A stretch of DNA of 43,432 nucleotides from an uncultured Myxococcales bacterium (lineage in GTDB: Bacteria; Myxococcota_A; Polyangia; Palsa-1104; JAEUJZ01), in the NCBI GenBank assembly GCA_937859535.1, contig CALLYL010000404.1, positions 1-43,432 of the forward strand, written 5' to 3'. Shown here in pieces: positions 250-19,360 of the stretch. Under the pieces are notes generated by a model. That model worked only from the letters and a program-made list of their open reading frames with translations. It did not search any database and had not been told where the DNA came from. Positions within the stretch are counted from its first letter, which is position 1; each line of letters starts with the position of its first letter. Position numbers and translations under genes: made by a program.

Positions 250-263
250 TACAGAGGATTTCC

Positions 264-3438: not shown

Positions 3439-3460
3439 CGAAGCTCCGCACCGTAATGGT

Positions 3461-4870
3461 TCATAGCCAAAAGAGCGCATCTTCACTACGACCCGCTTCC
3501 GCAGGAATCCAGCCGAAGTGCGACAGCAAAGCCAACCACCGCTTCCGCCAACGCGTCACATCAAAGTGCTGGGCAGATTGGCGGGCCGCGAGCTGAAGTC
3601 GAGTCCGCTCCGCACTGTGTTCAATCAGGTAGTTGATCGCCCCAGAGATTGACTCTGGATTCGGGCTCACTAGCAGTCCGTTGCTGCCGGACTGGATGAT
3701 GTCCGACAATCCACCGATATGCGTCGCCACCGTCGCGCAGCCAGAGGCCAGGCTCTCGATGCAAGACAGACTGGTGCCCTCGCAGGCAATGGTTGGGATC
3801 ACACAGATGTCTGCGGAACGATAGTAGTCCGGCATCTGTTCAAAGCTCGCCTTCAGAAACTGGAGCCGGGAATCCTGCTGCGCCAGCGCTTCGATGATTC
3901 GATTGTCCGGTCCGTCCCCTTCGCCAATCCACAGAATGCGACAGCGGTGCGGAATCCGCGACAAGATATCGCCCAGGATGCGGCTACCACGGTTGACATG
4001 ACTGCGGCGCGGAAACAGAATGGTCAGATCCTCTGCTGAGCGCTGAGGAGTCGGCCACTCCACCTGTGGATGAAAGAGTTCGGTATCCGCAAAGTTGGGC
4101 AGATAGACCATCTTCGTGGCGAGTTCGGGCCACAGCGCACGCACCACGTTGATCGAGTTGGTATCGACACTCACCACCAAGCCGGGCTGCGCAAAGCAAC
4201 GATGCAGGTGACGGAACCAGTCCTCACTACGGATTCCGAGTCCTTCATAGTTGCGATGGTCAAACCAGATGCCGTGACACAGGAGCAGCGCATCACGGCG
4301 CATTCGATGGGCAGAGGCGTACTCCGGTAAATTGTAGATCACTCCGTCATAGGAGTGACTGATATCGAAAAAATTCTCAGAGATTCCGTAGTCAAACTCC
4401 GAAAAACGCTGATGGGAAGGTAGCCCAATCACCTTGAATCCCGCACACTCTCCTTGAAACGGCTGATGGGCCCCTTGATAGATGGTCACCGTGCAGCCAG
4501 ACTCCCGCAACAATCCCGCAAGGGTCAGGCAGACGCGCTCGCCTCCACCATAAGTCGGGGCAAGAGATTTCCAGTCCAGCACCTGATTGGTGAGCAGTGC
4601 CACCGACTTGACGGGCTGGCCCCGTCTTCCCATCTTTGCGTTCGGAACACAGTCCGTTGCAACCAGTCGCCGCAGCAAATCGGAAGGATGAGGTCGGGCG
4701 GGCCTCCTGGCCTTGCTAACAGGATTCCTACGCTCCGCCAGAGAGGTCTGGACATCGTCCACATAAGCCGAAAACCGAGAATAGAACCGATGCCGACCCT
4801 CTTCCCCGCCGAGGAGAAAGTCGTCTTTCAATGAAGAGAGCCCGTTTCGCAGAGCATCAGGAAGAGACAT
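3461..4870 (-). CDS. Glycosyltransferase family 4 (GT-B fold)
   Basis: 'SVALLTNQV...GGGERV' N-terminal GT4 start and 'IPTIACEGTSLSCIESLASGCATVATHIGGLSDII' (E-x7-E region). About 85 aa of N-terminal extension. An internal start at ATG 4633 cannot be excluded. Confidence 0.8.
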   Translation of the reverse strand: MSLPDALRNGLSSLKDDFLLGGEEGRHRFYSRFSAYVDDVQTSLAERRNPVSKARRPARPHPSDLLRRLVATDCVPNAKMGRRGQPVKSVALLTNQVLDWKSLAPTYGGGERVCLTLAGLLRESGCTVTIYQGAHQPFQGECAGFKVIGLPSHQRFSEFDYGISENFFDISHSYDGVIYNLPEYASAHRMRRDALLLCHGIWFDHRNYEGLGIRSEDWFRHLHRCFAQPGLVVSVDTNSINVVRALWPELATKMVYLPNFADTELFHPQVEWPTPQRSAEDLTILFPRRSHVNRGSRILGDILSRIPHRCRILWIGEGDGPDNRIIEALAQQDSRLQFLKASFEQMPDYYRSADICVIPTIACEGTSLSCIESLASGCATVATHIGGLSDIIQSGSNGLLVSPNPESISGAINYLIEHSAERTRLQLAARQSAQHFDVTRWRKRWLALLSHFGWIPAEAGRSEDALFWL

Positions 4871-4926
4871 CGCTGCGGCTGCGTGTACCGTAATTTAAGG
4901 AACAAAGTCAAGGCCCGCCCGGCCCG

Positions 4927-4956
4927 TTGACAGTCGTCGCGTGGTTGCGATATACG
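4927..4956 (+). promoter_or_regulatory. Candidate sigma70-type promoter (TTGACA, 17-18 nt spacer, ATATAC/TATACG) immediately upstream of the 4964 ATG
   Basis: Perfect -35 hexamer TTGACA at 4927-4932. TATACG at 4951-4956, only 7 nt before the ATG, which would imply a leaderless or near-leaderless mRNA. Sequence match only. Confidence 0.3.
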
Positions 4957-4963
4957 AGCCGTA

Positions 4964-7900: not shown

Positions 7901-9505
7901 TCGAATGCAGGTTTCGTGGAAAAGTTCTTGCTCGACTCTTCCTATGAAGTTTATGGAATGGTGAACTGGACGCTCGTTCCGCCCTGTGAACCGCCGCTGT
8001 CTCAAGGAGAGTATCTGCAACAGCTCGCGGATTCTTATTCGACGGGACATCCGCTCATTTTGAGCAGTGGCCAGCCATTGGTCATGGCCCCCTATCAGCT
8101 CTGTCTTGGGGATGATCCATCCTTGTCACTGTCTTTTGCGAAGCAGCTCCGCCGCGATATGATGCAGTTGGAAGTCCTCAATTCCTATCTGGAGGAATGG
8201 CAGCCCGAACGATGCCTGGCCAACCTGCTGCGGCATGCCAATACCTTCGCACAGGACTTTGCGGTACCGCAGCCCAATACCGGAATCACACCGCCCCCGT
8301 ACGCGGAACCACAGCCGGTGCAAGTGATCAGCGCGGGAGCGCAGCCGCTCCGTAACGTGATGCTGGTGGATTCGCTCGATGTGGGAGGGCTGGAGGAAGT
8401 CGTCGCGTTCCTGGTCCGCAACCTCCACCAACATGGGGTCCGGACAGCAGTGGCTTGCTTCCAGCGCGGTGGACAGGTGGCAGACAAGCTACGCGCCGAA
8501 GGACACGACATTGTGCTGGCAGAAGGAAACGAACAGAGACTTCACAGCCAGCTTCAACAGCTCGATCCACAGATCATCAATTCGCACTACGCCAGCTTGC
8601 CCGCGCTGCTTGCTGCCGAGAGACTGAGCAGACCAATCGTTGAGACGATTCACAACACCTATGTCTGGCTAAGCCCAGAGCAGTGGAAGATCGAAGCAGA
8701 GCGGAGCCGCCGTTTTGCCAAAGGTCTGGCGGTGAGCGGCCTGGTAAAACGCTACTATCACGCGCACAATCCCACGCTGCCCACAGATCGAGTGATCGTG
8801 GTGGGAAATGCAATTGATCCGGAGCGGATTACCGCCGTTTCACGCGACGAGGCCAGGCGTGCTCTGGGGATTCCCGATTCAGCCACTCTCTTCCTGTGTC
8901 TCGGTCGCTACTGTTCGCAGAAGAACCAGATCGGAATCGTCCATGCGTTCGCGCAACTCGCAGCGCGTGATCCGCAGGCCATTTTGCTCTGCATGGGCAA
9001 CGTCCCACCAGAGGAGAGAGCTTACTATCAACAGCTTCAAGCGCTGTGCGAGAGCCTGCCTTGCCGCGATAGGATTCGGCTCGACAGCTATCACCCAAGC
9101 GTCTCTACCGTGCTCTCGGCCGCTGATGCCATGGTGATGAATTCCTTCTTTGAAGGCTGGAGCCTGGCCGCCACCGAAGCACTACTGACCGGAACACCGC
9201 TGATTCACAGCTTGTGCGGCAGCGCCGAGGAGTTGTGTGGAGCAAGCGCGGAGCGTGGCTTTGTGATTCCCAACCCCGGAGGAGACATTATGCAGCTCCA
9301 GATTGGGGCCCTGGTCGACATAGCCTCCCGCGCTGAACAACCGAATCAAACAGAGCTTATCCGCGCCATGGATCGCGTCGTGGCTGAGCGAGACAGACTC
9401 CGCTCCGATCGCGACGCCATCAGTGCTTATGCCCGGCGGGTCTTTCATCCGACCGCGATTCTATCGCGCTATACCCAGACCTTCCGTGCCCTTACGAGGA
9501 ATTGA
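4964..9505 (+). CDS. 1513-aa multidomain glycan-assembly enzyme: Zn-ribbon + class I SAM methyltransferase / coiled coil / GT2 / uncharacterised ~330-aa module / GT4
   Basis: CxxC...CxxC (aa 6-32). SAM motif I 'ILDLGCATGHF' (aa ~96). Heptad-rich 'LREQNHQSQLEQQNRSAADQIARLRNEINQLREVNDQI' (aa ~358-396). GT2 'VSVILPVYNQTDLLRSSVLSVLSQSYPHLELIIVDDGS' plus 'LTWTSADN' and 'EDYDFWLR' (aa ~555-785). GT4 'VMLVDSLDVGGLEEVV...FFEGWSLAATEALLTGTPLIHS' (aa ~1130-1513). Confidence 0.85.
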   Translation: MQPLTCIYCGSSNFSHAYQRADGRAIVGCQDCGLLFISDIPDNIAELYGTDYFHKTESASGNGYSNYDGLDPIAFRWQLALSRLFSGHTADCAKTILDLGCATGHFLKMAGAAGFHCAGVEISPSAAESVRQQGFPVLVSSFESANPAPVDLVTAWDFIEHVVDLRTTFEKVRSTLLDGGVFLFATPDGGSARAQEHGEKWICLNSSFEHITYLTIPFLERALRETFGCEPLLLSFDVGEFWTSIIGMVRVGGLTEQDRRIGQLLRSQEQPSSDEEITKFGSELGFFYATFMQLAALSRLIERADGLLPPATVAALHGGLLYLSDQFPESIPWLRQGLSAEPLCAAWLATANAHTLTLREQNHQSQLEQQNRSAADQIARLRNEINQLREVNDQIIHSVTWKVGRKITQPIESVPHSRAVLSGLQQFRERGPLRSLQAAHSYVQAITDSSSANQSKAQRLATASLKVTEYVTEHVHPGRLPNLLTAFLQDKLPLLRSKQSQEPASAGLGLPSEIPPRDTVTHTSTSPRNSDSASAVPASVLLSDPALVRHQGLPLVSVILPVYNQTDLLRSSVLSVLSQSYPHLELIIVDDGSREDVAASLEGLLDLPSVHLFRQVNQKLPRALSNAFQFAKGELLTWTSADNLMHPHAIARLAESLFRHPEAVLAYADVDIIDDNGKPITDGSYRELNVDPIAPEVVRLCRSDVPLSAERDNYVNACFLYRRNAAASMGHVYSDSLRGAEDYDFWLRLRRCGRLLHIGNREPLYSYRVHQRSMSHDLLTQERNEHYARVSLLIDLEEQRRSFARQRWDVVLDPALPYRTRTTLQEQLQQLPVNLAVPGAQDAGSGRKNLSIVPEDAQPAQSRSWQVFARVLPDSYELVCRPSPSAVQSGVERPPQRERVMPLLRGCTSSSLLMKARDVQHSARALPPAVAGRPVFAIPVPLQRIGIDRLRQIITANPWAYFLFVSVASPSEMLRLEGLSNAGFVEKFLLDSSYEVYGMVNWTLVPPCEPPLSQGEYLQQLADSYSTGHPLILSSGQPLVMAPYQLCLGDDPSLSLSFAKQLRRDMMQLEVLNSYLEEWQPERCLANLLRHANTFAQDFAVPQPNTGITPPPYAEPQPVQVISAGAQPLRNVMLVDSLDVGGLEEVVAFLVRNLHQHGVRTAVACFQRGGQVADKLRAEGHDIVLAEGNEQRLHSQLQQLDPQIINSHYASLPALLAAERLSRPIVETIHNTYVWLSPEQWKIEAERSRRFAKGLAVSGLVKRYYHAHNPTLPTDRVIVVGNAIDPERITAVSRDEARRALGIPDSATLFLCLGRYCSQKNQIGIVHAFAQLAARDPQAILLCMGNVPPEERAYYQQLQALCESLPCRDRIRLDSYHPSVSTVLSAADAMVMNSFFEGWSLAATEALLTGTPLIHSLCGSAEELCGASAERGFVIPNPGGDIMQLQIGALVDIASRAEQPNQTELIRAMDRVVAERDRLRSDRDAISAYARRVFHPTAILSRYTQTFRALTRN

Positions 9506-9507
9506 CC

Positions 9508-10689
9508 ATGCATGTTCTGCTTGCGATTGGAACGCGACCGGAAGCGATCAAAGTTGCGCCTCTTTACCATGCGCTCCGCAGCGATCCGTTCTTTCGGGTC
9601 ACCACTTGTATTACCTCCCAGCATCGGGAATTGCTCCAGCAGATGCTGTCATTTTTCGATGTCCGTCCAGACGTCGATTTGCAGGTAATGCAGCCTCGGC
9701 AAACGCTGGCTGACTTGACCTGCAATGTGCTGAACGGAGCCGATCGATTGCTCAGCGAGACCCGCCCCGATCTGGTGGTCGTTCAAGGCGATACCACCAC
9801 TGCATTCACGGTCGGTTTGGCAGCGCTATATCAGCGAATCAAGGTCGCACATGTCGAGGCAGGACTGCGCTCGTTCGATCTCCAGCAGCCCTTCCCAGAA
9901 GAGGCGAATCGACGGCTGGTAGATGTTTTTTCGGACTATCTGTTCGCACCAACAGAAGGTGCTGCGGACAACCTGCGCCGGGAAGGCTATCAGGATGTCT
10001 CTATCTTTGTGACAGGGAATACCGGCATTGATGCGCTGCTCATGGCGACCGAGATCGTGCGCCGCCAAGGACATCCGCTGCCGATCAACCTGCCCGCAGG
10101 CTCCAAGTTGGCACTCCTTACCGCGCATCGCCGCGAGTCGTTTGGCGATGGCTTGGTGAGAATCTGTCAAGCCGTCCTATCACTCCTTGAGCGGCACCCC
10201 AACCTGTACATCCTGTATCCGGTGCATCCCAACCCCAACGTACAGGAAGCCGCACACAAGTATCTGGCTGCACATCCGCGAATCTACTTGTGCGCTCCGC
10301 TGGAGTATCCCGGATTTGTATCGGCACTCGCTGCGGCGGATCTGATCTTGACCGACTCTGGGGGCGTGCAAGAGGAAGCGCCAGCGCTCGGCAAGCGCGT
10401 TCTGGTACTCCGCGAAACCACCGAGCGGCCCGAGGGCATTGAGGCCGGAGTGGCCGAACTGGTCGGAACAGATGTCGACCAGATTGTAGCCCGTGCCACC
10501 GCGCTTCTTTCTGGAAGCGATGCCCTTGGTCCCGTTGTAAGTCCCTATGGCGATGGTCGATCCTCCGCTCGAATCGTAGAGGTACTCAAAACCGGAGCAC
10601 TCCGCGATTCATTCCGGACCTCCGGTTCCTCGCCCCAAACAGCAATCCCGGCACCATCGAAGCAGAAGCGCGCCGGCAGTGGACGCTGA
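9508..10689 (+). CDS. wecB: UDP-N-acetylglucosamine 2-epimerase (non-hydrolysing)
   Basis: 'MHVLLAIGTRPEAIKVAPL', 'VAHVEAGLRS', 'DSGGVQEEAPALGKRVLVLRETTERPEG'. ATG 9508 preferred over TTG 9502. It lies 2 nt after the upstream TGA (9503-9505). Confidence 0.9.
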   Translation: MHVLLAIGTRPEAIKVAPLYHALRSDPFFRVTTCITSQHRELLQQMLSFFDVRPDVDLQVMQPRQTLADLTCNVLNGADRLLSETRPDLVVVQGDTTTAFTVGLAALYQRIKVAHVEAGLRSFDLQQPFPEEANRRLVDVFSDYLFAPTEGAADNLRREGYQDVSIFVTGNTGIDALLMATEIVRRQGHPLPINLPAGSKLALLTAHRRESFGDGLVRICQAVLSLLERHPNLYILYPVHPNPNVQEAAHKYLAAHPRIYLCAPLEYPGFVSALAAADLILTDSGGVQEEAPALGKRVLVLRETTERPEGIEAGVAELVGTDVDQIVARATALLSGSDALGPVVSPYGDGRSSARIVEVLKTGALRDSFRTSGSSPQTAIPAPSKQKRAGSGR

Positions 10690-10694
10690 TTCCC

Positions 10695-12347
10695 ATGGCG
10701 ACGACTCCTACAGGCTCTGCGGAACGCTTCGGACTGCTGCTTCTTGGATTCCTATTCTCTGTGGCAGTTTGTGGACAGATCCAGCTATTGTGCCACTTAC
10801 GCTTGGGAGTTGTGCCACCGATCTTCGCGGCCGTAGTGTCTCTGCTCATCGCAAGGAAGCTCAGCAAAACCCCGCTGCTCGATGTCGTGGGACTGCTGAC
10901 TGGTCTAGCAGCGCTCGGCCTTGTCTGTGGTCGTATCTACGATCTGTCTTGGGATGGACAAACCTATCATCAAGAGGCGGTGTTTCAGATTGCCCACGGC
11001 TGGAATCCGATCTGGGATGCACCACTGCCACTATGGCACGGAGACATTGCCTGGTGTAACTACTATCCAAAAGGAATCTGGGTGGCCCAGGCCGCTTTGT
11101 ATCGTTTGAGCGGCAACATCGAGAGCGCCAAACTGCTCGGCCCGGTCTTGCTGGTTGCGGCCTTCCTCCTATCGCTCTCGGCTTGTCAGTCCCTGTCTCT
11201 CAAGCGCGGAATGAGCGTGCTCATGGCAGGCTTGGCCGCAGCCAACCCGGTCGCACTCGCTCAGCTCACTACGTTCTATGTCGATGGTCTGCTTGCTTCT
11301 CTGCTCACGATCCTGACCGCTGTGGCAGTGCTGTATGTTCGCCGGCCCGCCCCTCGTTACTTGCTTGCAATGACTGCGGCCATGGCGCTTTTGTGCGTCA
11401 CCAAGTTTACGGGTGTGGTGTATGCGGTCTTTTATGCCGGCGGACTCCTGCTGTTCGCTCTGTACCGACGACGTTCGCAGCTCTCCGCGTTGCTTCTGAC
11501 CCAAGCGATGGGAATGCTAGCGGGTGTGGTGCTGCTCGGATTTCAACCGTATCTCACCAACCTTTTTGCCCATCTTCACCCCTTTCATCCACTCGCCGGG
11601 TCTCACAAAGTCGACTTCCTTCCTTCGCAACTGGGTCCAAAGTTTGGGGCACAGCCACGAGTGTTGGCGCTCACTGAATCGATCTTTTCGGTATCGACCA
11701 ATGATCGGGAGTGGCCCAGATGGAAAATTCCCTTTTCGGTCACCCAGAAAGAGCTGGGCGAGTTTGCGATTCCTGACATCCGGATTGGCGGCTTTGGGCC
11801 CTGGTTTGGTGGCATCGCGCTCCTCACCACCATCAGCCTGGTGGTTCTGTTCATCCAGCAGCGGCGCACTCCAAAACTGCCCTCTTCTCGACGACAGAAA
11901 CCTACCCCAGGCCGTGAGTCCTTGGCCGCTGGGATATTCCTCATGCTGGTGATCTTGGCTTCCTGTCTGGTCAACCCCGGGGTCTGGTGGGCGCGCTACG
12001 TACCGCAGATGTGGCTGATTCCGGTAGTCATGGTCGGTCTGCTCCGCCTGCACGATAGTCGCTGGGTGTGGCCGCTTTCTACCGCGCTGATCCTCAACGT
12101 CGCGCTGGTCCAATGTGGTTCCATCCATGGACAGCTTGAGTTACAGCGCAGCACTCGCGCTGAACTTGAGATGCTCCGTTTCCAGAAGGTCGATGTGAAG
12201 TGGAACACCTTTGCGGGTGCCCGCTTCCGCTTGCAACGGAGTGGCGTTGATTTCCGAGAGGCCACCCTTACCTGTTCCCAACCGATCACACTCATCCGCA
12301 CCAATGTTGAGCTCTGCCCACGTCAAGTTGCGTCAGGCCGGCCATGA
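10695..12347 (+). CDS. Polytopic inner-membrane protein (about 11-13 TM segments); possible GT-C-fold glycosyltransferase or glycan polymerase
   Basis: Successive hydrophobic helices throughout. First predicted loop carries an acidic 'YDLSWDGQTYHQE' motif. The stop overlaps the next gene's start (ATGA at 12344-12347). Function inferred from context only. Confidence 0.6.
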   Translation: MATTPTGSAERFGLLLLGFLFSVAVCGQIQLLCHLRLGVVPPIFAAVVSLLIARKLSKTPLLDVVGLLTGLAALGLVCGRIYDLSWDGQTYHQEAVFQIAHGWNPIWDAPLPLWHGDIAWCNYYPKGIWVAQAALYRLSGNIESAKLLGPVLLVAAFLLSLSACQSLSLKRGMSVLMAGLAAANPVALAQLTTFYVDGLLASLLTILTAVAVLYVRRPAPRYLLAMTAAMALLCVTKFTGVVYAVFYAGGLLLFALYRRRSQLSALLLTQAMGMLAGVVLLGFQPYLTNLFAHLHPFHPLAGSHKVDFLPSQLGPKFGAQPRVLALTESIFSVSTNDREWPRWKIPFSVTQKELGEFAIPDIRIGGFGPWFGGIALLTTISLVVLFIQQRRTPKLPSSRRQKPTPGRESLAAGIFLMLVILASCLVNPGVWWARYVPQMWLIPVVMVGLLRLHDSRWVWPLSTALILNVALVQCGSIHGQLELQRSTRAELEMLRFQKVDVKWNTFAGARFRLQRSGVDFREATLTCSQPITLIRTNVELCPRQVASGRP

Positions 12348-14353
12348 CGGTGCGAACCAGAATCGAGCGTATGGCCAGTGAGTGCCTGCGCCGGGCTCGG
12401 ATCCAGTGGTTGGCGGCACGCTTTCGTGGGTTCCGTCGTCTTCGACAGCAGCGCTTCGGAACCGATTTAACAGGCCTCTGTTGTCCTGTGACTCCGTCGC
12501 TGGTATCGATTGTCCTACCGGTCTACAATGGAGCCAGTCTCATCGCCTCTGCGATCGAATCGATCCTGGCGCAGGACTATCCGCAGTGGGAACTCATTCT
12601 CATCAATGATGGTTCCCAGGACAACACAGCTCGCATCATCGATGAGTACGCAGCGCGTGATGAACGCATTCGCGTCGTTCACCAAGAAAATCGTAAGATT
12701 CCGAAGACCCTGTCGCGTGGGTTTCGAATGGCACGCGGTCAGTATCTCACCTGGACCTCTGCGGACAATCGACTGCTGCCTTCGTTTCTACGACTCCTTG
12801 TATCCAGCTTAGAGCGACATCCCGACTGGGATCTGGTGTACGCCAACCAGGACATCATCGATGAAGACGGTACGCCGCTGCGGGGCAGCAGCTACTTTGC
12901 TGATCTCCAAACACCACCGGGTAGCGAACACCTGCATCTTCCGAGTCGGACAGACATCCTGCATGCAGGAGAGAATTTTGTCGGCGCGGCGTTCATGTAT
13001 CGCAGCCGCGTCGCACATCTACTTGGAGACTACAGCAATCAGCGTTTCACCGTTGAAGACTATGACTATTGGCTGCGCTGTAATAGCCTCCTCAATGTCC
13101 ATCATGTCGACTTCTCAGAGCCGGTCTACGAGTACCGATTTCATAGCGGCTCACTGACGGCACACGCCAAGGAACTGCGCATTGCCGAGTCACGAGAACA
13201 ACTCCTGGTTTTTGACGGATTCCGTCAGGAGTTTTGTCTCAAGCCTCTGCTGTGGATCTGCGAAGGGACAGTAACCACTGTGGGCTCACCGCTTGTGCGG
13301 GCTCTTCAAGAACAGATTGCGTCCCTGGGACACACCCGCATTACAAGGGAACAGCTCTCTTCACTCACCCTGCCCCGCTACTTTTTGCCAGCCGTCTATG
13401 TACAGCTCGGAAGTCACATAGAGAGTCTCAAGCCACCGCCCGCCGATCTGCCACCTTTTGTGCTGACGGTGTTGCTGCTAAGCGATTCTGCGGTGCCTGA
13501 CTCAGTACATCCTCGCTGGGATCTGGTCACGGCCATCGGCCCTGGTGCAACTCCCAGATTCACGGCAGAATCCTATCAAGGACTCCTTCGCACAGATGGT
13601 CTGAGCACGCTCGTGCGCGCAATCGACTGTCGATGTCGGGCGGAGGCGCTCCGGCAACTGGAGCAACTCAGCGCAGCACCAACACAGCCGCAGCGTCTGT
13701 CCATCATCCTAGATGCCGACGGCCCAGCGTCGCAGCTTCGCGCCATTGTCCATTCCCTGCTGCTACAAGATCTGAATGGACACGAATCCGCGCAGCTTGA
13801 GGTCCTCTTTGTGCGGCGAGATCCCAAGCGGTGTCGAGCCGAAGAAGCGATGACCGCATTCAGGACGCTCGAACAAAGCAATAGACCGCCCATACTGCGG
13901 ATGCTGGATTGTCCCGCGACGAATGAGCTGGCGAGCTGGAATCTCAATGCCGCCATTGCAGAGACAAGTGGCGAGGTCATCTATGCTTTGACTGAGCCAC
14001 TTGGGAATCCTCACTGCTTGACCGATCTCTTCGCGTTGTTTGCGCAGCATCCCAAGCTTGCGCTGGTCCGAAAGCCGAATTCAACCAGGATGCCTGTGTC
14101 ACGATCGCGTTCTTTTGCCGCACGCCGCAACCCGCTACTACTTGCCGGGGGAATCCAGAACGGACGACGCTCGTTGGTTCCCAGCTCAGCAGCAGAGCAA
14201 CTAATCACCAGTCAACTTCAGCGCCTCGGCTTTGAAGTCGCAGAGTGTGAAACCCTGTTTCGCGCTCGCAGTGTAGCGACCGCACTCCGCGTTCTGCCGA
14301 CCAAGTTGCGCGCTGTCCGTGAAGTGATTGCCCAGAGCTTACAAGCTCGCTAG
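12344..14353 (+). CDS. Glycosyltransferase family 2 with a long C-terminal extension containing a second, degenerate GT2-like half
   Basis: 'VSIVLPVYNGASLIASAIESILAQDYPQWELILINDGSQDNT', 'LTWTSADN', 'EDYDYWLR', paralogous to the GT2 module of the 4964 gene. The C-terminal half begins 'LSIILDADGPASQLRAIVHSLLLQD'. Confidence 0.85.
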   Translation: MTVRTRIERMASECLRRARIQWLAARFRGFRRLRQQRFGTDLTGLCCPVTPSLVSIVLPVYNGASLIASAIESILAQDYPQWELILINDGSQDNTARIIDEYAARDERIRVVHQENRKIPKTLSRGFRMARGQYLTWTSADNRLLPSFLRLLVSSLERHPDWDLVYANQDIIDEDGTPLRGSSYFADLQTPPGSEHLHLPSRTDILHAGENFVGAAFMYRSRVAHLLGDYSNQRFTVEDYDYWLRCNSLLNVHHVDFSEPVYEYRFHSGSLTAHAKELRIAESREQLLVFDGFRQEFCLKPLLWICEGTVTTVGSPLVRALQEQIASLGHTRITREQLSSLTLPRYFLPAVYVQLGSHIESLKPPPADLPPFVLTVLLLSDSAVPDSVHPRWDLVTAIGPGATPRFTAESYQGLLRTDGLSTLVRAIDCRCRAEALRQLEQLSAAPTQPQRLSIILDADGPASQLRAIVHSLLLQDLNGHESAQLEVLFVRRDPKRCRAEEAMTAFRTLEQSNRPPILRMLDCPATNELASWNLNAAIAETSGEVIYALTEPLGNPHCLTDLFALFAQHPKLALVRKPNSTRMPVSRSRSFAARRNPLLLAGGIQNGRRSLVPSSAAEQLITSQLQRLGFEVAECETLFRARSVATALRVLPTKLRAVREVIAQSLQAR

Positions 14354-14365
14354 AAACGCCTCCGT

Positions 14366-15340
14366 TTAGGAACCGCCAATGCAAAATGGCTCCAGGGCCT
14401 GCATCCCACCGACGGGAAGCTTGCCTCCAGCGTTTGGCACACAGGCCAGCAGTCCCTTGTCACAGATGTATAGTCCAGCATTGCGTCCGGCCCCCGACTT
14501 CGCACAGTCCAGATCGGTCTGACAGCTCTGCAAGTAGTATCCTTTGACATCCATGGGCGTCAGTCCGTACTTGGGAACGCCGTAATAGGAGGCCTTACTC
14601 GGACGACAGACCGTGCTGGCAGAGTCCGCCACCGCGCAGTAACCAGTCGGCCACGGCACGTCGGTCTCACGCAGACAGACTCCGTTTGTTCCGCAACCGC
14701 CGTCTACCTTGCAGCTTGTTCCTAACTTGACCCCACAATTTGTCGGATCATTTCCCGGCGTCACTTGAACGTCACAGCGCTGCGGTAGCGCGATCGGATA
14801 GATGCCCGCAGGGAGCACTCCGCCGGTTGGAGTAGCCCACGCGGGCAGCTCTGCCGGGACATACAGAAAGACTCGATTGGGAAGGACTCCCATGAACGCA
14901 TCGCCCGAGGAATAGCGACCATCCTGGTCATTGTCCAGATAGGCCAGGATTCGCCCCGCCGCGAAGCCACGGCTCAATCCGGATGGGGTCCGCGCAATAT
15001 GCTCCGCCCCCGGATATTCATACATGTTGAGCAAGAAGGGCGTGGATGCCAGTCCAACCAGGCCGCTACTCAACTGCTCCACATATTGAGTGGGATCGGT
15101 GCCGGTGTCTCCCTGCGGGTTCCAAAACATCGCGATCCGTAGTTCGGTTGAGCTGGTCAGCTTGGGGTCGCTGATCTCCAGCCCACCGGAAAACTGCCAC
15201 AGCGACTTTCCGCGAAACTGCTGATCGACCAGTGGCTCACCACAGGCACTGAGCGCAAGCAACAGACCCAGCGCCAGCCCGCTTTTCGCGACTCCCATCC
15301 CTACACTGTGTACCATTGGTAGGTTTGTTAGAAACGCCAT
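14366..15340 (-). CDS. Lipoprotein with a DxDxDG-type loop and a Cys-rich C-terminal domain
   Basis: Start set at ATG 15340 (GGAGGGGGAAT-ATG Shine-Dalgarno), 13 nt inside the upstream gene's end. Lipobox 'LLLALSAC'. 'DNDQDGRYSSGD' loop. About 14 Cys in the last 130 aa. Confidence 0.7.
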   Translation of the reverse strand: MAFLTNLPMVHSVGMGVAKSGLALGLLLALSACGEPLVDQQFRGKSLWQFSGGLEISDPKLTSSTELRIAMFWNPQGDTGTDPTQYVEQLSSGLVGLASTPFLLNMYEYPGAEHIARTPSGLSRGFAAGRILAYLDNDQDGRYSSGDAFMGVLPNRVFLYVPAELPAWATPTGGVLPAGIYPIALPQRCDVQVTPGNDPTNCGVKLGTSCKVDGGCGTNGVCLRETDVPWPTGYCAVADSASTVCRPSKASYYGVPKYGLTPMDVKGYYLQSCQTDLDCAKSGAGRNAGLYICDKGLLACVPNAGGKLPVGGMQALEPFCIGGS

Positions 15341-16968
15341 ATTCCCCCTCCAGCCAGCCACCACGTGAACACCGAGCGAGTCTGCGCAGTTTGCTCCGCA
15401 CCGTTCATGAGCACCGCCTGATTCAACAGACTCGCGCTCGGCCCGCCTTCCAAGCGCATGCCGACTCCACGAAACATTTGTCGCTCCAACGCAAACAGCG
15501 CCGAAAATCCGATGCCGAAGGAATTGCGCGACTGCACCTGGCGGAGTGTCGGAGCAAAGCGCTGGGCATACCAAGTTCCTTCGATCGTCACTCCGAATGC
15601 CAAGCTAAACCACGGCAAGTCGACATAGCGTTGCAGAACGGCCGCCAGACCGAGTTCATACTGTCGCGAAGCAAGACCGCCATCGATAGACATCAGCGAT
15701 GCAGTGCTTCCTCGCAATCTCGCCCCTACGGTCAACCAGGGCAGGTCCGCAGCGTACCCAAGCAGCACATTGGGGGTCGGTCCTTGACCCGCCAGGATCT
15801 CTCCCCGTCCACCAAACAGCAGGTTCAGACCATGTACGGAAGTACGCGTTCCTCCCCGCTTGCGTACCAGTTGATCGTAACGAACGGAGCGATACGGCAA
15901 TGATGCCAGATCGACCTCTTGGCCCGGCACAAGCTCGATTTGATACTCTCTGAATTCGTAACTCCCTCGTCGCTGAATGAAGTATTTTCCACGCGGTAGC
16001 GCGATCACTCCCTGGTTGCGTGTGGTGGTTAGTTCCGCAACCACGGCACCACTTTCGCGCTCCTCCGTAACCAGATACATGCTGGCATCGGCCAGTCGCA
16101 AGCGACCCAGATTGTGTTCGGCACCAGTCAGCGTAGTCAGGACCAGATCACCACTTCCTTTGACATCGTACGCATAGGTTGGGTGTTGGAGCTGAAGCGT
16201 CTGTCCGCTCGATCGCAGAGTCTGCGCATAGCTATAGGCATATGCTTCCGAGAGGGTCACCCTTCCATCGCCGTTGCGATCTGCCGCGCCCCGCAGCGCG
16301 TTGACCAGGTGATGCGAAAAGAACGAAGCGCGCAGCCGATCGGACTCCTGACTGGACTCCCCCGCCGTGCTGGAAGAGATCATCGCGGTGCCTTCTGCTT
16401 CGACCCGATCCTCCAGCTTGATCGCAAACTCAGGGACACTGCGAACCCCTTTTACGCGAGTCACAGCCCCTGAACGACAGGCATCAACCACCAGCAGTCT
16501 CATCGTTGCGGGCGAGCCAGATACCAGTCCTCGTAGCTCTTCAATGGGAAGCCTGGTGCCGCGCAGGTGAAGTGATTCCGCATCCGCGTGACCCGAGTAG
16601 AACACCAGCAGCGCAGTGGTTTTGCCATCCGCAGACCTGGCCCGTAGTCCAGCGTTTACATTGACCAGCGCACGACGAACGGTCTCGGCACTCTCATCGA
16701 TGAGAATCCGAACTCGGTCGGATGCAATGTTGCCTTGGGTGCGCAGAACTTCGGCGAATTCTCTGGCATCGCGCTCCCCGTATAGCAACTGTATCTCGTC
16801 GGCATCCCCCCGGTTATTGCCCACCACAATCAGCCAGCTTTCATCAGGGAGTGCATGGACCCGCATTCCCCAAAGCAGGATTATCAGACCTGCGAGCAGA
16901 GAAAGCGAATGACGCATGTTGCGACTGATTCTGTGGCCGATTTTCTTATGTAGCAGAGCACGCTTCAT
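15328..16968 (-). CDS. Secreted caspase-family (peptidase C14) protein with a C-terminal outer-membrane beta-barrel-like domain
   Basis: Signal peptide 'LSLLAGLIILLWGMRVHA'. Catalytic dyad contexts 'LLVFYSGHA' (His) and 'LLVVDACRSGA' (Cys). Canonical EF-hand loop 'DRNGDGRVTLSE'. The last ~190 aa show an alternating amphipathic strand pattern ending 'GGGIWRF' (terminal Phe). The start ATG overlaps the upstream stop (ATGA at 16965-16968). Confidence 0.8.
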   Translation of the reverse strand: MKRALLHKKIGHRISRNMRHSLSLLAGLIILLWGMRVHALPDESWLIVVGNNRGDADEIQLLYGERDAREFAEVLRTQGNIASDRVRILIDESAETVRRALVNVNAGLRARSADGKTTALLVFYSGHADAESLHLRGTRLPIEELRGLVSGSPATMRLLVVDACRSGAVTRVKGVRSVPEFAIKLEDRVEAEGTAMISSSTAGESSQESDRLRASFFSHHLVNALRGAADRNGDGRVTLSEAYAYSYAQTLRSSGQTLQLQHPTYAYDVKGSGDLVLTTLTGAEHNLGRLRLADASMYLVTEERESGAVVAELTTTRNQGVIALPRGKYFIQRRGSYEFREYQIELVPGQEVDLASLPYRSVRYDQLVRKRGGTRTSVHGLNLLFGGRGEILAGQGPTPNVLLGYAADLPWLTVGARLRGSTASLMSIDGGLASRQYELGLAAVLQRYVDLPWFSLAFGVTIEGTWYAQRFAPTLRQVQSRNSFGIGFSALFALERQMFRGVGMRLEGGPSASLLNQAVLMNGAEQTAQTRSVFTWWLAGGGIWRF

Positions 16969-19220
16969 GGCTTCAGAAACTCATCGACAGAGACACTTCC
17001 AAGGCGACCGGCAGCTCCGGCATTATACAAGGAGACATGCGAACCAGCGATGCGAAGATAGACCTCGGTATAGAGTGAGGACAGCATGGGAACCGGTGAC
17101 TTGCTCATCAGGTTCACCACCTGATTCGAGAACGCATCATTGACCCACGAGCCCACCTCGGCATCGTAGGCCCCTGCGTAGGACACCTCTCGACTGTGCG
17201 CGGCACTGAGGAGAACCGTTCCGGCCAGCGGTGTCATCGCTCCGCTCGCCCCGCAGCCTAGCTCGATACCGCCATAGGAAGCGTCCCCGAACGCTCCACC
17301 GTAGCAGCTCTCGACAACGACCAGCGCCCGACGCAGACGGCCTTCGGTTTGCAGCACACACAGAGCTTCGCGAAGATGTTTCGGAGAAAACGTCGAGCCA
17401 CTCGCCTTGAGTCCCTCCGCTGGAGAGCTGGCTGCAATCGGGATTCCTTGGTTGCCACCATGGCCCACCAGATAGATGTACAGGTTGCTCGCCGATGTAG
17501 TACGGATGACTTGTGGAGTGCGATCTGAAACCTGCCCGGTGATGATGCTGGTCAGATCGGTCGGGTTCACCAGCAGGTTATAGTCACGCACCACCCCACG
17601 ATAGAGATTCGGCCCACCGGGTTCGTTCCGCACCGTGCCTGCCAAGGGATTGCGGATTGAAGTGGCCAGATCATCCGCCATGATGAGCACGATGTGATCG
17701 TCTTCAAAGCCCTGGGCCCGCAGGAGCTGATACTGACGGAGCGCATCGGCTTGATGCCGGTAGTTGCTCCATCCTGAAGACAACGCGGCAATCACCGCCC
17801 AGGAGTCTCCCTTATCCACCTTGGGAGTCCAGGCGCTGCCACCGAGATCGCTTTGGAACGCTCGATTGGGAGGCACAAACACTCCGCTGCTGCTCAGAAA
17901 AGCCGGATCTCCGGTGAAGTAGCGGCGGTCTGTTTGCGGTCCCTGCGGAGTCATTCGCCAGTGTGTCAGCGTTGATGATGACAGATCCACATAGAGTCCC
18001 GGTTCGAACTGAAGCGGCCCCGTTGCACCCGGAATTCGCGGTCGGTGCCCCTGTGCAAGCAAAGACAGTGCGCTCGCAATTCCTGCTTGATCCCAACCAC
18101 TCACCCCATCCTCTCGACCATCCACCACTGACTTCAGGGCGTCGACCAGCACCTGTCCTCCTTGCCCTCCCGAAGCGGCCAGTCCGTACGCAAGAAGGAG
18201 TATCGCGTCATACTCATTGGGACCATGCGGAGCAAGGCGCGCACCACCAAAGCGGCTGTGGAAGGCTTGCTCGAACTGCTCCGTCCCCGCGCCGCTGAGT
18301 CCTTCGATTCGCATGGCTTCTGGACCCAACTTGGTCAGGCTATTGGTATCAAGTCCGGTGTCCGCAAGCATCACCCGTGGACCAGGATTTTGCGCCAGCT
18401 TATGAAGGATGCAGTCCTGTTCCTGAGTTGCACCGGCAGCGATGAAAACGATATCTGGAGCACTGCTCACGGCGGACTGCACCGCAAGGTCACACGCCTC
18501 TCCTTTGGCAAAGGCAGAGATCGAAATTGCATCATCTGCGTAGCCCAGCTCTTTGGCGAAAAACCCGAACCAGGAAAAGAAAGTGTATCCGCCGTTATCG
18601 AGGGTGCTGATCAATGCCAGCCGTTTCAATCCCTCCTGTTTGGCCATACGAACCAGCAGCTCTGTCTGCGCGATGTCAGACTGCCTTGTCCGCCAGATCA
18701 CGCCTTTGCCGCCATACGCACGGAGGATCTCAGCAGCCGCAGAAGTCGTCGACACCAGCGGCTTGTTCGCAGCCAGATAGGAGTCCGCCACCGCTGCCAA
18801 CATCTCCGAACCAGGAGGGGCAATTGCCGCAACATAGCGATCATTGGAAGCGACTCCTTGGCTGATCTCGATGATTGCGCTGAGGTCTTTGCCGGTAAAG
18901 TCGAAGTATTCTAGCTTCAGCGGGCGACCGGCCACTCCTCCTGCCGCGTTCACCAGTTCCGCAGCCCAGTCCATGTTCGGATGTGCGAGTGGAGTCGCTC
19001 CGGCAGACCCCATGCTCATATTCATGCCCGGGGGCGGGTCGGTTGCGCCCATGGTTGAAGGGGCAGCAATTCCCATCAGCACCGCAATGCGCAGCGGCTC
19101 GGTACCCGAACCACAGGCCGAAAGGACACAGGTCATCATGGACCAGGCCAATAGCAAGAAACAGTGTTCGACAATCACTGACAGAGGTCTATTCGCACAG
19201 CGGGTCCAGGTGGCTGACAT
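16965..19220 (-). CDS. Lipoprotein fusing a type-I periplasmic binding protein domain (Leu/Ile/Val-binding / ANF-receptor-like) to a legumain-type (peptidase C13) domain
   Basis: Start at ATG 19220 (GAGGAG 5 nt upstream). Lipobox 'VLSAC'. PBP-like 'LRIAVLMG...AAELVNAAGGVAGRPLKLEYFD'. Legumain motifs 'WAVIAALSSGWSNYRHQAD', 'IVLIMADD', 'LYRGVVRDY', 'YLVGHGG' (His), 'VVVESCYGG' (Cys). Confidence 0.8.
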   Translation of the reverse strand: MSATWTRCANRPLSVIVEHCFLLLAWSMMTCVLSACGSGTEPLRIAVLMGIAAPSTMGATDPPPGMNMSMGSAGATPLAHPNMDWAAELVNAAGGVAGRPLKLEYFDFTGKDLSAIIEISQGVASNDRYVAAIAPPGSEMLAAVADSYLAANKPLVSTTSAAAEILRAYGGKGVIWRTRQSDIAQTELLVRMAKQEGLKRLALISTLDNGGYTFFSWFGFFAKELGYADDAISISAFAKGEACDLAVQSAVSSAPDIVFIAAGATQEQDCILHKLAQNPGPRVMLADTGLDTNSLTKLGPEAMRIEGLSGAGTEQFEQAFHSRFGGARLAPHGPNEYDAILLLAYGLAASGGQGGQVLVDALKSVVDGREDGVSGWDQAGIASALSLLAQGHRPRIPGATGPLQFEPGLYVDLSSSTLTHWRMTPQGPQTDRRYFTGDPAFLSSSGVFVPPNRAFQSDLGGSAWTPKVDKGDSWAVIAALSSGWSNYRHQADALRQYQLLRAQGFEDDHIVLIMADDLATSIRNPLAGTVRNEPGGPNLYRGVVRDYNLLVNPTDLTSIITGQVSDRTPQVIRTTSASNLYIYLVGHGGNQGIPIAASSPAEGLKASGSTFSPKHLREALCVLQTEGRLRRALVVVESCYGGAFGDASYGGIELGCGASGAMTPLAGTVLLSAAHSREVSYAGAYDAEVGSWVNDAFSNQVVNLMSKSPVPMLSSLYTEVYLRIAGSHVSLYNAGAAGRLGSVSVDEFLKP

Positions 19221-19360
19221 GGTGACTCCTCTCACAGCGGACGACCTCTTAGCGTATCGTGAATCGGCAGTACGTAAGACCCCCATCGACACGATTTGGG
19301 CAAGCACAGGCTGGCGCAAAACCCCACGGTGCGCGCCCTGGCTGCTGCTACAGTAGCGGC

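Follow-up and report, generated by a model that had tools for sequence, protein, structure and literature searches.

The window analyzed here, a 43,432-nucleotide stretch of DNA from an uncultured Myxococcales bacterium, contains a gene that raises the question of what a type-I periplasmic binding protein (PBP) and a legumain-type protease do in one polypeptide. A sequence-only reading of the locus had described such a lipoprotein, suggested ligand-gated proteolysis, and knew of no characterized protein of this architecture. Is the fusion real, are both domains intact, and what could the protein do?

A Single Gene Encodes the PBP–Legumain Lipoprotein

The coding sequence is a single uninterrupted open reading frame (ORF) of 751 amino acids, with its ATG at 19220–19218 and its stop codon at 16965–16967 (table 1). 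A longer, TTG-started ORF that extends up to 19505 is unsupported as the true start because close homologs are also 751 amino acids long. The lipobox is preceded by a hydrophobic stretch, and the sequence-only reading was right to call the product a lipoprotein; essentially all full-length homologs have a lipobox or something close to one. Cys36, the predicted lipidated N-terminus, is kept in 199 of 224 homologs. Column statistics across these homologs also identified two strictly covarying cysteine pairs, 243–270 and 621–656, the first of which would form a disulfide within the PBP domain. Judged from the lipobox and the two pairs, the product is a lipid-anchored, extracytoplasmic, two-domain protein.

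Table 1. Features of the PBP–legumain locus (positions in the window)
Feature	Position	Strand	Basis
PBP–legumain lipoprotein CDS, complete (751 aa + stop)	16965..19220	-	ORF, translation; equal-length homologs
Shine-Dalgarno-like GAGAGGAG, spacer of 5 nt to the ATG	19226..19233	-	Read directly in sequence
Lipoprotein signal peptide, residues 1–36, lipobox L33-S34-A35-C36	19113..19220	-	Sequence; homolog conservation
Type-I PBP domain (cluster B, LivJ-like), residues 38–440	17901..19109	-	Pfam PF13458, AlphaFold2, Foldseek, profile vs PDB, column statistics
Met/Gly/Pro-rich insertion loop in PBP domain, residues 52–75, lineage-specific	18996..19067	-	Alignment gaps, pLDDT
Interdomain linker, residues 441–470	17811..17900	-	Alignment, pLDDT comparison
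Peptidase_C13 domain (legumain-like, clan CD), residues 471–751	16968..17810	-	Pfam PF01650, PDB phmmer, Foldseek
Asn486-Tyr-Arg488-His489	17754..17765	-	Legumain alignment
Catalytic His587 codon (human legumain His148), in LVGHGG	17460..17462	-	Legumain alignment; codon checked
Catalytic Cys639 codon (human legumain Cys189), in VVESCYGG	17304..17306	-	Codon checked
Downstream gene: signal peptide, Peptidase_C14 caspase domain (His127, Cys164), C-terminal region ending ...GIWRF	15328..16968	-	Pfam PF00656; sequence
Third gene of apparent operon, Cys-rich lipoprotein, lipobox LLALSAC	14366..15340	-	Sequence

The Fusion Is Conserved across Phyla

An assembly, frameshift, or read-through artifact that joins two separate genes can be rejected as an explanation of the architecture, and nothing was found in its favor. 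The ORF is continuous, pLDDT is high across the junction, and the exact protein is found on nine independent contigs. The same colinear arrangement of ∼700–750 amino acids recurs in 128 protein clusters and 451 genomic hits, the latter from five or more phyla, including Myxococcota, Bacteroidota, Actinomycetota, and Chloroflexota, as well as one archaeal MAG. Carriers amount to hundreds of species and include the cultured isolates Plesiocystis pacifica SIR-1, Flexivirga alba, and Leekyejoonella antrihumi. The best 150 of 163 C13-domain relatives at E ≤ 1e-30 are nearly all ∼700 amino acids long with the C13 domain at ∼440–710. We regard the PBP–C13 fusion, as the sequence-only reading had it, as confirmed. 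A few apparently standalone C13 lipoproteins of the same clade lack a PBP (P0126, P0180, and P0167), which indicates that a PBP is not strictly required by the protease.

The architecture is neither rare nor unseen, being already in public databases. UniProt A6GET6 (WP_006975226.1) of P. pacifica SIR-1, for example, is an orthologous member with 47% identity at 97% coverage and the same two Pfam domains. Names given to the family are automatic only: A6GET6 is annotated as "Legumain" or "C13 family peptidase" and other members as "ABC transporter substrate-binding protein." We know of no characterization of, or experimental data for, the family, A6GET6 included, consistent with the earlier view that the architecture is uncharacterized. 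To our knowledge, there is also no characterized example of a PBP paired with a protease.

The C-Terminal Domain Has a Complete Legumain Active Site

Pfam Peptidase_C13 (PF01650) matches residues 474–733 (E = 2.2e-38; score 132.7 bits, cut-off 22.8). A phmmer search of the PDB matched legumain at E = 1.6e-25, with the mouse and human enzymes both at about 1e-25, and the motifs on which the sequence-only reading had based its motif-for-motif match are present in these alignments. The domain has the caspase-like fold of mammalian legumain (MEROPS C13; 4aw9, 7fqk, 4noj), the model having a Foldseek TM score of 0.88 to human 7fqk, and shares its Asn/His/Cys catalytic residues and Arg-His/Glu-Ser-Asp S1 pocket. 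His587 is present in all 224 homologs and Cys639, the one cysteine of the mature protein that belongs to neither covarying pair, in 223. Asn486, the oxyanion or triad Asn (human Asn42), is found in 216, whereas Arg488 and His489, which make up the basic side of the S1 pocket (Arg44 and His45 in human legumain), are found in 224 and 221, respectively. At the other pocket columns, 222 homologs have Ser680, 212 have Glu637 (Asp in 12), and 184 have Asp695 (Asn in 40). Conservation of the catalytic residues and the Asn-specific pocket is 82–100% (n = 224). By alignment, then, the domain is a C13, clan CD cysteine peptidase in which both the catalytic set (Asn486/His587/Cys639) and an S1 pocket of the Asn/Asp type (Arg488, His489, Glu637, Ser680, and Asp695) are complete. 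Because these residues are shared with legumain, Asn-P1 specificity is predicted.

Several features set the protein apart from legumain. The C-terminal LSAM-type prodomain is absent, as read from sequence and Pfam, and there is instead an N-terminal PBP and a lipid anchor. Extra insertions follow the catalytic His and Cys, the latter insertion stapled by a predicted Cys621–Cys656 disulfide. Eukaryotic legumains require acidic pH and reside in an acidic lysosome or vacuole, whereas the setting here is the bacterial envelope. The residue before His587 is Gly in 217 of 224 homologs (GHGG), where legumain has a succinimide-forming Asp. The catalytic subunit of GPI transamidase, GPI8/PIGK (7w72_K, 7wld_K), is a membrane-associated C13 enzyme of the same family and fold that is active outside the cytosol and has this same GHGG form. 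When the His motif alone was used in a search, GPI transamidases were the only C13 matches, with non-significant E values. Similarity to GPI8 is nevertheless lower than that to legumain (67.8 vs. 92.7 bits; TM about 0.70), the C-terminal transmembrane helix of GPI8 is absent, and we know of no GPI transamidase partner subunits in bacteria that carry the PBP–legumain protein.

The N-Terminal Domain Is a LivJ-Like PBP

Pfam Peripla_BP_6 (PF13458) matches residues 84–365 (E = 2.9e-17; score 63.8 bits, cut-off 31.7); the ANF_receptor score fell short of its cut-off. The AlphaFold2 model of the domain alone (pLDDT 89) has an intact fold with both lobes, and its Foldseek matches include 4q6b, 3td9, and 4n0q (TM 0.75–0.80), among them Leu-, aromatic-acid-, and urea-binding proteins (E about 1e-17). 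The family profile matches the Leu-binding protein of D. hafniense (4mlc/4q6b, Leu complex) across both lobes at E = 4e-32; this is the nearest structure of the LivJ/LivK type (cluster B), and 3td9, 4gnr, 4n0q, and 1z15 are others. Profiles and models agree with the sequence-only reading that this is a type-I PBP; it is LivJ-like and intact, and its nearest relative is a genuine Leu-binding protein.

Residues equivalent to the ligand clamp are Ser138, Ala161, Gly210/Tyr212, and Asp287. The clamp Ser and acidic residue of LivJ/LivK-type proteins are kept: the equivalent of LivJ Ser79 (Ser138) is conserved in 88% and that of Glu226 (Asp287) in 96% of the 224 homologs. The clamp Thr and Tyr, by contrast, are replaced. 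The position of LivJ Thr102 is Thr or Ser in 82% of homologs but Ala161 in the window protein, and that of Tyr150 is Gly210, with Tyr212 two residues on. The pattern differs among subclades, with STYD in only 64 of 224 homologs, which could reflect either a range of different ligands or weaker constraint. Further differences from LivJ/LivK are the fusion to a protease, the lack of a nearby ABC transporter, and an unusual, hydrophobic, near-invariant aromatic helix, TFF(S/D)WFGFF, in which F214 is present in 211 and W217 in 210 of 224 homologs. The insertion loop at residues 52–75 corresponds to gap columns in most homologs and is predicted to be disordered (pLDDT <60).

The Two Domains Are Predicted to Pack Rigidly

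The full-length AlphaFold2 model (pLDDT 91, pTM 0.88) is confident across the domain junction. The linker is variable in sequence and has no universally conserved Asn or Asp across the family alignment; in the window clade, Asn/Asp residues lie just ahead of the domain start (...PKVDKGD-SW). Linker pLDDT is 83–92 in the full-length model versus 44–74 in the PBP-only model. Since it is ordered only with the C13 domain present, the linker probably lies against the protease, according to the models. Rigid packing of the PBP and C13 domains on each other is predicted with confidence. The conserved architecture, the pTM, and the C13-dependent order of the linker suggest that the fused PBP–C13 is a fixed functional unit.

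Genomic Neighborhoods Vary by Lineage

An ABC ATPase-like ORF is lacking within 6 kb of the gene in 77 of 79 loci, and no Liv-type genes occur in two neighborhoods with Pfam-annotated called genes; from these loci, we infer a nontransport role for the PBP. No neighbor conserved family-wide that would point to a substrate was found in the loci examined. In the window, the downstream C14 gene overlaps the PBP–legumain gene by ATGA, and the C-terminal region of its product is a putative outer-membrane barrel. The C14 gene adjoins the PBP–legumain gene only in the window clade (L001 and L002), is 2–4 kb away in L083 and L084, and is local context rather than a family-wide partner. The third gene, which starts at ATG 15340 or ATG 15316, accompanies the C14 gene in other genomes. 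Lineage-specific lipoproteins encoded beside the PBP–legumain gene are Bmp-like in 18 of 79 loci and Cys-rich in 10.

Possible Functions of the Fused Protein

We tentatively favor, at somewhat less than even confidence, an extracytoplasmic, lipid-anchored, Asn-specific protease that is controlled or targeted by an orphan PBP that binds an amino-acid-like ligand. There are precedents for a type-I PBP domain that gates an effector: natriuretic-peptide receptors (guanylyl cyclases), class C GPCRs (mGluR and taste receptors), and AmiC/AmiR. Both mGluR and T1R were matched by the PBP domain in the profile and Foldseek comparisons. By analogy, the PBP–legumain protein may work in the same way, with cleft closure on a small ligand controlling the effector, although here the effector is a protease. 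Clan CD also includes a small-molecule-gated protease, the InsP6-activated C80 CPD of MARTX and Clostridioides difficile TcdA/TcdB toxins, which is caspase-like with a switch at a site separate from the active site. It is a mechanistic precedent only: the PBP–legumain protease is C13, whereas the C80 ligand site is a basic cleft inside the protease domain instead of a separate PBP, and its context is toxin autoprocessing.

The PBP might instead be a degenerate, passive scaffold, spacer, or protein-interaction module that binds no small molecule and holds the protease clear of the membrane or serves as a dock for partner lipoproteins. Clamp residues vary, with two of four canonical positions changed in the window protein, the aromatic helix suggests a buried protein–protein or interdomain interface, and the adjoining Bmp-like and Cys-rich lipoproteins could be docking partners. 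We nevertheless consider this unlikely, as Ser138 and Asp287 are conserved with no obvious structural role beyond ligand contact in LivJ-type proteins, and the two-lobed fold is confidently predicted to be complete. Such conservation would be unexpected in a mere plug, which argues against the PBP being a latency or folding domain that stands in for the missing LSAM prodomain until autoprocessing or displacement, with ligand binding irrelevant. In favor of latency, the legumains of eukaryotes are zymogens whose prodomain is missing here, the linker of the window protein is predicted to be packed on the protease, and the window-clade linker has Asn/Asp before the domain start. However, those residues are not conserved family-wide, standalone C13 lipoproteins occur in the clade, and the PBP is N-terminal, like caspase recruitment prodomains, rather than a C-terminal active-site cap, all of which makes latency quite unlikely.

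The C13 family includes true transamidases, and GPI8 and plant peptide asparaginyl ligases are significant PDB matches. The protein could therefore be an Asn-directed transpeptidase whose PBP holds the incoming amine nucleophile by the thioester intermediate, so that protein C-termini are modified or attached rather than degraded. The Gly before the catalytic His, which is the GPI8 form, and the PBP residues that bind α-ammonium and carboxylate are consistent with this, the motif-only matches being non-significant. But the domain is nearer to legumain than to GPI8 by both bit score and TM, candidate acceptor or substrate genes are not conserved, and plant-defined ligase determinants are not confidently transferable; we judge transpeptidation very unlikely. 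Nutrient capture, in which the protease makes nutrients locally and the PBP passes amino acids on to an ABC importer whose genes lie elsewhere, accords with the nearest solved relatives being transport receptors, with the automatic annotation as an ABC transporter substrate-binding protein, and with the lifestyles of hosts such as Myxococcota and Bacteroidota, which are predators and degraders that break down protein. It is highly improbable given the scarcity of nearby ABC ATPases; moreover, cleavage by an Asn-specific endopeptidase yields no free amino acids, and a rigidly packed 280-residue domain would probably hinder permease docking.

The ligand-gated proteolysis that the sequence-only reading suggested is thus compatible with the PBP fold, Ser138 and Asp287, the lack of an ABC partner, and the predicted rigid packing; gating is what we infer from these, and they leave room for other PBP roles. 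Under the favored reading of a PBP-controlled protease, the orphan PBP would bind a small ligand bearing an amine and a carboxylate, an amino acid or similar, via Ser138 and Asp287. Whether it is open or closed would be relayed to the protease by way of the ordered linker and the rigid interface between the domains, and protease activity or substrate access would change accordingly, so the PBP is proposed to be a sensor or regulator and not a transport receptor. The C13 enzyme would cut envelope or secreted proteins after Asn and possibly Asp. The secreted lipoproteins encoded alongside, which differ by lineage, may be its substrates; the candidates in the window are the C14 caspase-like protein, whose gene is translationally coupled, and the Cys-rich lipoprotein.

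An Extracytoplasmic Fusion Protein Inherited as a Unit

The 751-residue product of positions 16965–19220 (−) is a lipid-anchored, extracytoplasmic protein in which a catalytically complete legumain-type domain (Peptidase_C13, or C13; residues 471–751) is joined by a linker (441–470) to a structurally complete LivJ-type periplasmic-binding-protein domain (PBP; ∼38–440). Its gene is a single uninterrupted open reading frame (ORF). The Shine–Dalgarno-like GAGAGGAG preceding the ATG at 19220, together with close-to-identical homologs in independent assemblies that are likewise 751 aa long, sets its length at 751 codons, and on these grounds the TTG start at 19505, the mechanical limit of the ORF, was rejected. 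ORFs in other frames or on the opposite strand within the gene are unsupported, ordinary by-products of a GC content of ∼59%. Searches found no second copy in the window, and no NCBIfam model matched the protein.

The architecture is widespread. A word-indexed search returned 128 clusters, nearly all of 670–800 aa with both Pfam domains, and a scan of GTDB r232 (one genome per species) gave 451 encoding stretches from at least five phyla. The sequence-only reading had proposed a binding domain and a legumain protease fused in one ORF; this observation is confirmed, with both Pfam domains above their cut-offs, and an assembly or frameshift artifact is effectively excluded by the recurrence of the fusion across these clusters and stretches. 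The best 79 of the 451 loci include members of Myxococcota (Polyangia, Nannocystaceae, and Plesiocystis pacifica SIR-1), Bacteroidota (Draconibacterium and Tangfeifania), Actinomycetota (Acidimicrobiia, Flexivirga alba, and Leekyejoonella antrihumi), and Chloroflexota, as well as one Methanoregula metagenome-assembled genome (MAG). A Polyangia MAG of a membrane bioreactor has the closest locus (89% identity), and the window is thus in all likelihood part of a Polyangia chromosome. The Methanoregula copy (L076; JBAZQF010000003.1) has 31% identity and lies with a Bmp-like neighbor on a 320-kb contig that is assigned to a methanogenic archaeon; either the gene was transferred horizontally from Bacteroidota-like bacteria or the contig was binned wrongly.

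The two domains are inherited together. With only the C13 domain as query, an exhaustive HMMER search yielded 163 representatives at E ≤ 1e-30, in a clade of about 160 clusters at 50% identity. Nearly all of the best 150 of the 163 have a length of ∼700 aa and carry C13 at ∼440–710, so the fused form is the norm of this C13 clade, and most of the shorter representatives are fragments. Three proteins of the same clade, P0126 (378 aa), P0180 (281 aa), and P0167 (326 aa), have a signal or lipobox followed by C13 and lack the PBP domain; they apparently are genuine, complete standalone lipoproteins and offer useful natural controls for the contribution of the PBP domain. The fusion as such is no discovery because the architecture is already in public databases under automatic names, among them "Legumain" (UniProt A6GET6, P. 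pacifica SIR-1), "C13 family peptidase," "ABC transporter substrate-binding protein," and, in IMG, "GPI8/ABC-type branched-chain amino acid transport." We know of no experimental characterization of the family.

The N-terminus has the n- and h-regions of a lipoprotein signal followed by a match to [LVI][ASTG][GA]C (...FLLLAWSMMTCVLSA-C36, or L33-S34-A35-C36), which bears out the earlier lipoprotein call. The lipobox Cys is kept in 199 of 224 full-length homologs used for residue counts, the remainder being mostly N-terminally truncated, and a strict lipobox is found in 89 of 117 full-length homologs, with near-lipobox variants in most others that have an intact N-terminus. Two pairs of cysteines co-occur in the alignment: 243–270 (both present in 157 homologs, one only in 3) and 621–656 (both in 106, one only in 3). 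This is the pattern expected of disulfides, and such putative bonds would fit an oxidizing, extracytoplasmic compartment. In the mature protein, Cys639 is the sole Cys outside of these pairs.

A C13 Domain with a Complete Legumain-Type Active Site

All tests that could be applied place the C-terminal domain in family C13 (clan CD). Residues 474–733 match Peptidase_C13 (PF01650) with E = 2.2e-38 and 132.7 bits against a cut-off of 22.8. The full-length AlphaFold2 model, built with 58 homologs, has a mean pLDDT of 91.4 and a pTM of 0.88, and in Foldseek its C-terminal part superposes on human legumain (7fqk, 4awb) with a TM of 0.88, an rmsd of 2.3–2.7 Å, and E ∼1e-19. Functional residues were placed by alignment to mouse and human legumain; their roles are those of the published legumain structures. 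The catalytic order His-Gly...Ala/Ser-Cys and the Asn42 equivalent are present, the zwitterionic S1 pocket for Asn is complete, and the catalytic Cys and His align with those of legumain, as had been read from the sequence. Read from the alignment, this conservation is the signature of a C13 enzyme that is predicted to be active, specific for Asn (or Asp), and under strong purifying selection.

Conservation of functional residues in 224 full-length homologs (C13 residues numbered as in human legumain; PBP residues as in LivJ)
Role	Reference residue	Residue in window protein	Conservation
C13, triad/oxyanion	Asn42	Asn486	216/224
C13, S1 pocket, basic	Arg44	Arg488	224/224 (100%)
C13, S1 pocket, basic	His45	His489	221/224 (99%)
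C13, catalytic	His148	His587	224/224
C13, S1 pocket, acidic	Glu187	Glu637	212/224 (95%) + 12 Asp (5%)
C13, catalytic	Cys189	Cys639	223/224
C13, S1 pocket	Ser215	Ser680	222/224 (99%)
C13, S1 pocket, acidic	Asp231	Asp695	184/224 (82%) + 40 Asn (18%)
PBP, clamp	Ser79	Ser138	188 Ser + 9 Thr of 224 (about 88%)
PBP, clamp	Thr102	Ala161	Thr 151, Ser 33, Ala 34 of 224
PBP, clamp	Tyr150	Gly210 (Tyr212 two residues further)	Tyr 114/224
PBP, clamp	Glu226	Asp287	216/224 (96%)

Strictly speaking, the domain falls short of being a legumain: both the C-terminal legumain prodomain (LSAM) and the Asp-His motif are missing. In contrast to the zymogen organization of eukaryotic legumain, the protein ends 18 residues past the C13 profile match; LSAM is needed only for strict legumain and not for C13 membership. 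Where Asp precedes the catalytic His in the eukaryotic enzyme, the family has Gly586 (217 of 224), and there are extra insertions between His and Cys and after the Cys. Three homologs of ∼830–843 aa (P0095, P0105, and P0140) carry one or two DUF7151 (PF23657) modules inside C13 after the catalytic Cys, in the loop that bears the Cys656 insertion in the window protein. Membership in the GPI8/PIGK transamidase subfamily was rejected: legumain scores higher than GPI8 (92.7 vs. 67.8 bits; TM of 0.88 vs. ∼0.70), and the C-terminus (...SVDEFLKP) has no hydrophobic segment corresponding to the transmembrane anchor of GPI8/PIGK. A search of the PDB with the short peptide GHGG returned mostly designed "Pizza" repeat proteins, with GPI transamidases only at E ∼1, and was discarded as evidence for a GPI8-like motif.

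A LivJ-Like Binding-Protein Domain with an Apparently Diversified Cleft

The N-terminal domain belongs to the cluster-B (LivJ-like) PBP family. Peripla_BP_6 (PF13458) matches residues 84–365 with E = 2.9e-17 and 63.8 bits (cut-off 31.7), while the ANF_receptor profile stays under its Pfam threshold. Residues 38–466 modeled alone have a pLDDT of 89.2 and match, in Foldseek, cluster-B type-I proteins that bind Leu, aromatic acids, urea, and others (E ∼1e-17, TM 0.72–0.80), the best being 3td9, 4q6b, and 3ipc at 0.79–0.80. The expectation that this half scores and folds as a PBP therefore held. Ligand-bound structures (4q6b, 0.79; 3ipc, 0.80) resemble the model slightly more than do apo or open ones (4mlc, 0.75; super-open LivJ 1z15, 0.64). 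A profile built from 26 of the family's PBP domains hit the Leu-binding protein of Desulfitobacterium hafniense (4mlc/4q6b) over both lobes with E = 4e-32, followed by 3td9, 4gnr, 4n0q, LivJ, and even the ligand-binding domains of mGluR. A Met/Gly/Pro/Ser-rich insertion in the first lobe, APSTMGATDPPPGMNMSMGSAGAT, is missing from most homologs.

The α-amino-acid clamp, consisting of Ser79, Thr102, Tyr150, and Glu226 in LivJ, was mapped with PDB sequences and a LivJ sequence whose numbering reproduces the known Tyr18, Ser79, Thr102, Tyr150, Tyr202, and Glu226. The full S-T-Y-D clamp is found in 64 of 224 homologs; the subclade of the window protein has S-A-G-D, with two of the four canonical positions altered. 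The near-universal Ser138 and Asp287 would hold the carboxylate and ammonium group of a ligand, and we read the alignment as suggesting a cleft that has been kept but diversified. The family also has a near-invariant aromatic helix, TFF(S/D)WFGFF (F214, W217), which is unusual among PBPs of this kind and possibly forms an interface. The 30-residue linker has a pLDDT of 83–92 in the full model versus 44–74 when modeled without the protease, and prediction supports the two domains forming one rigid body (whole-chain pTM of 0.88).

Genomic Neighborhood

Neighbors of the gene are lineage specific: the C14 operon, a Bmp-like PBP, and Cys-rich lipoproteins. Neither tblastn of the window neighbors against the 79 loci nor de novo clustering of flanking ORFs identified a family-wide neighbor. 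In the window, the gene is followed by those of a secreted caspase-like protein (Peptidase_C14) and a Cys-rich lipoprotein. No terminator-like site was found between the three genes, and promoter and terminator scans within the operon gave nothing above chance. The C14 protein has a signal peptide and a C-terminal region of ∼300 aa, the end of which (...GIWRF) looks like an outer-membrane β-barrel signature. The Cys-rich lipoprotein has no Pfam match and is always behind the C14 gene, also in L001, L002, L083, and L084 (37–39% identity). Its start is ambiguous between ATG 15340, which overlaps the C14 stop, and ATG 15316.

Adjacency of C14 and the fusion gene recurs only in L001 and L002 among the 79 loci; in two more distant Polyangia-type contigs, the C14 operon lies 2–4 kb away and is convergent. 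The C14 family has more than 1,000 matches, the named ones being from Myxococcota ("caspase family protein"; 52% identity in Archangium/Pyxidicoccus), and has an operon of its own that encodes an ECF sigma factor, DUF4384, C14, and a Cys-rich lipoprotein of ∼320 aa. The NCBIfam model caspase_w_EACC1 was rejected for the C14 neighbor, which scores far below its cut-off (64.9 vs. 140), and PADLOC returned no anti-phage defense match for the three operon proteins. The apparent operon encodes two proteases of clan CD, which may act in a processing cascade.

A different Cys-rich lipoprotein of ∼385 aa, absent from the window, directly adjoins the fusion gene in 10 loci of Nannocystaceae, Plesiocystis, and related Polyangia. 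It is up- or downstream on the same strand, its family has no Pfam match, and within its subclade it may be a partner or a substrate. In 18 of 79 loci, from Bacteroidota, some "delta" MAGs, and the Methanoregula MAG, a Bmp/PnrA-like (PF02608) PBP lipoprotein abuts the fusion gene with a gap of 0–5 bp. No ABC transporter is nearby, so the operon encodes two orphan binding proteins, the second being the Bmp-like one.

Other genes of the window are ordinary (coaBC, accD-like, folC-like, glycosyltransferases, TonB receptor, and histidine kinase). A 1513-aa polypeptide lies in a larger polysaccharide-type cluster (2272–14353) with a UDP-GlcNAc 2-epimerase. A 606-aa protein matches phosphatase domains of the type reported from polymorphic toxin and "Swiss Army Knife" systems.

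Coordinates of features in the window and in homologous loci (L numbers)
Feature	Position	Strand	Details
Shine–Dalgarno-like GAGAGGAG	5-nt spacer to ATG at 19220	−	Read from sequence
Insertion APSTMGATDPPPGMNMSMGSAGAT, residues 52–75	18996–19067	−	Predicted disordered
Peptidase_C14 caspase-like protein	15328–16968	−	His127, Cys164; overlaps stop of fusion gene by ATGA
Cys-rich lipoprotein	14366–15340	−	Lipobox LLALSAC; ∼14 Cys in C-terminal half
1513-aa single polypeptide	4964–9505	+	Methyltransferase, GT2, and GT4 glycosyltransferase domains
606-aa protein	34900–36720	+	C-terminus matches DSP-PTPase phosphatase domains PF22785, PF22784
∼385-aa Cys-rich lipoprotein	L003:8611–9846; L080:6746–7903; L083:3539–4669; L084:4627–5805		Also in 6 other loci
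Bmp-like lipoprotein	L022:9018–9992; L039:11938–12933; L076:11932–12939		Also in 15 other loci

Possible Roles of the Binding Domain

The earlier interpretation of ligand-gated proteolysis in the periplasm is partly supported. We tentatively favor, at somewhat less than even probability, a PBP domain that acts as sensor or regulator of the protease. The enzyme would cleave after Asn in envelope or secreted proteins. An amino-acid-like ligand would bind to the PBP domain, whose conformational state would modulate the activity, substrate access, or oligomeric state of the protease. The logic resembles that of natriuretic-peptide receptors, class C GPCRs, and AmiC/AmiR, in which type-I PBP domains control effectors, and InsP6-activated toxin CPDs offer a precedent, being clan CD proteases that a small molecule switches on. 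A PBP domain that is a passive scaffold or docking domain is unlikely; were that so, the protein would be an ordinary, unstudied envelope protease. Somewhat less likely again is a latency domain that substitutes for the missing prodomain, a role weakened by the alignment, in which no Asn or Asp of the linker is kept across the family as a conserved autoprocessing site.

It is also conceivable, though improbable, that the protein is an Asn-directed transpeptidase, its PBP cleft holding an amino acid or amine as nucleophile for the thioester of the legumain domain. Such an enzyme would tag or attach envelope proteins at a C-terminal Asn. With its own acceptor-binding domain built in, it would parallel GPI8 and the asparaginyl ligases of plants on the prokaryotic side, and it could serve as a ligase tool that would work at neutral pH and could be expressed in E. 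coli. In a milder version, closure of the PBP domain on an amino acid may allosterically switch the clan CD protease. Of these roles, we give least credence to a transport receptor that still serves a distant ABC importer. The cognate importer of a PBP is usually encoded adjacently, and none was found around the gene in the window or in L080 and L082. An ABC-ATPase-like ORF is within 6 kb in only 2 of 79 loci and Liv-type genes are absent from two neighborhoods in which called genes were annotated with Pfam, so the domain is an orphan with respect to transport.

Implications for the Family

Nearly all that is known of legumains comes from eukaryotes, in which they serve antigen processing in lysosomes, processing in plant vacuoles, the cyclization and ligation of peptides, and GPI anchoring. 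The proteins described here form a coherent and deeply conserved prokaryotic clade that keeps the legumain active site in full and in which a lipid anchor and a domain of small-molecule-binding type replace the eukaryotic prodomain. Cultured carriers exist and thus the family is experimentally tractable. To protein engineers, a bacterial Asn-specific protease or ligase that is stabilized by disulfides and possibly works at neutral pH would be of interest. The origin of eukaryotic legumain and GPI8 is a further question on which the family has a bearing. If the PBP domain gates or feeds the protease, the fusion would represent a new coupling of metabolite sensing to envelope proteolysis and a new regulatory solution for clan CD proteases.
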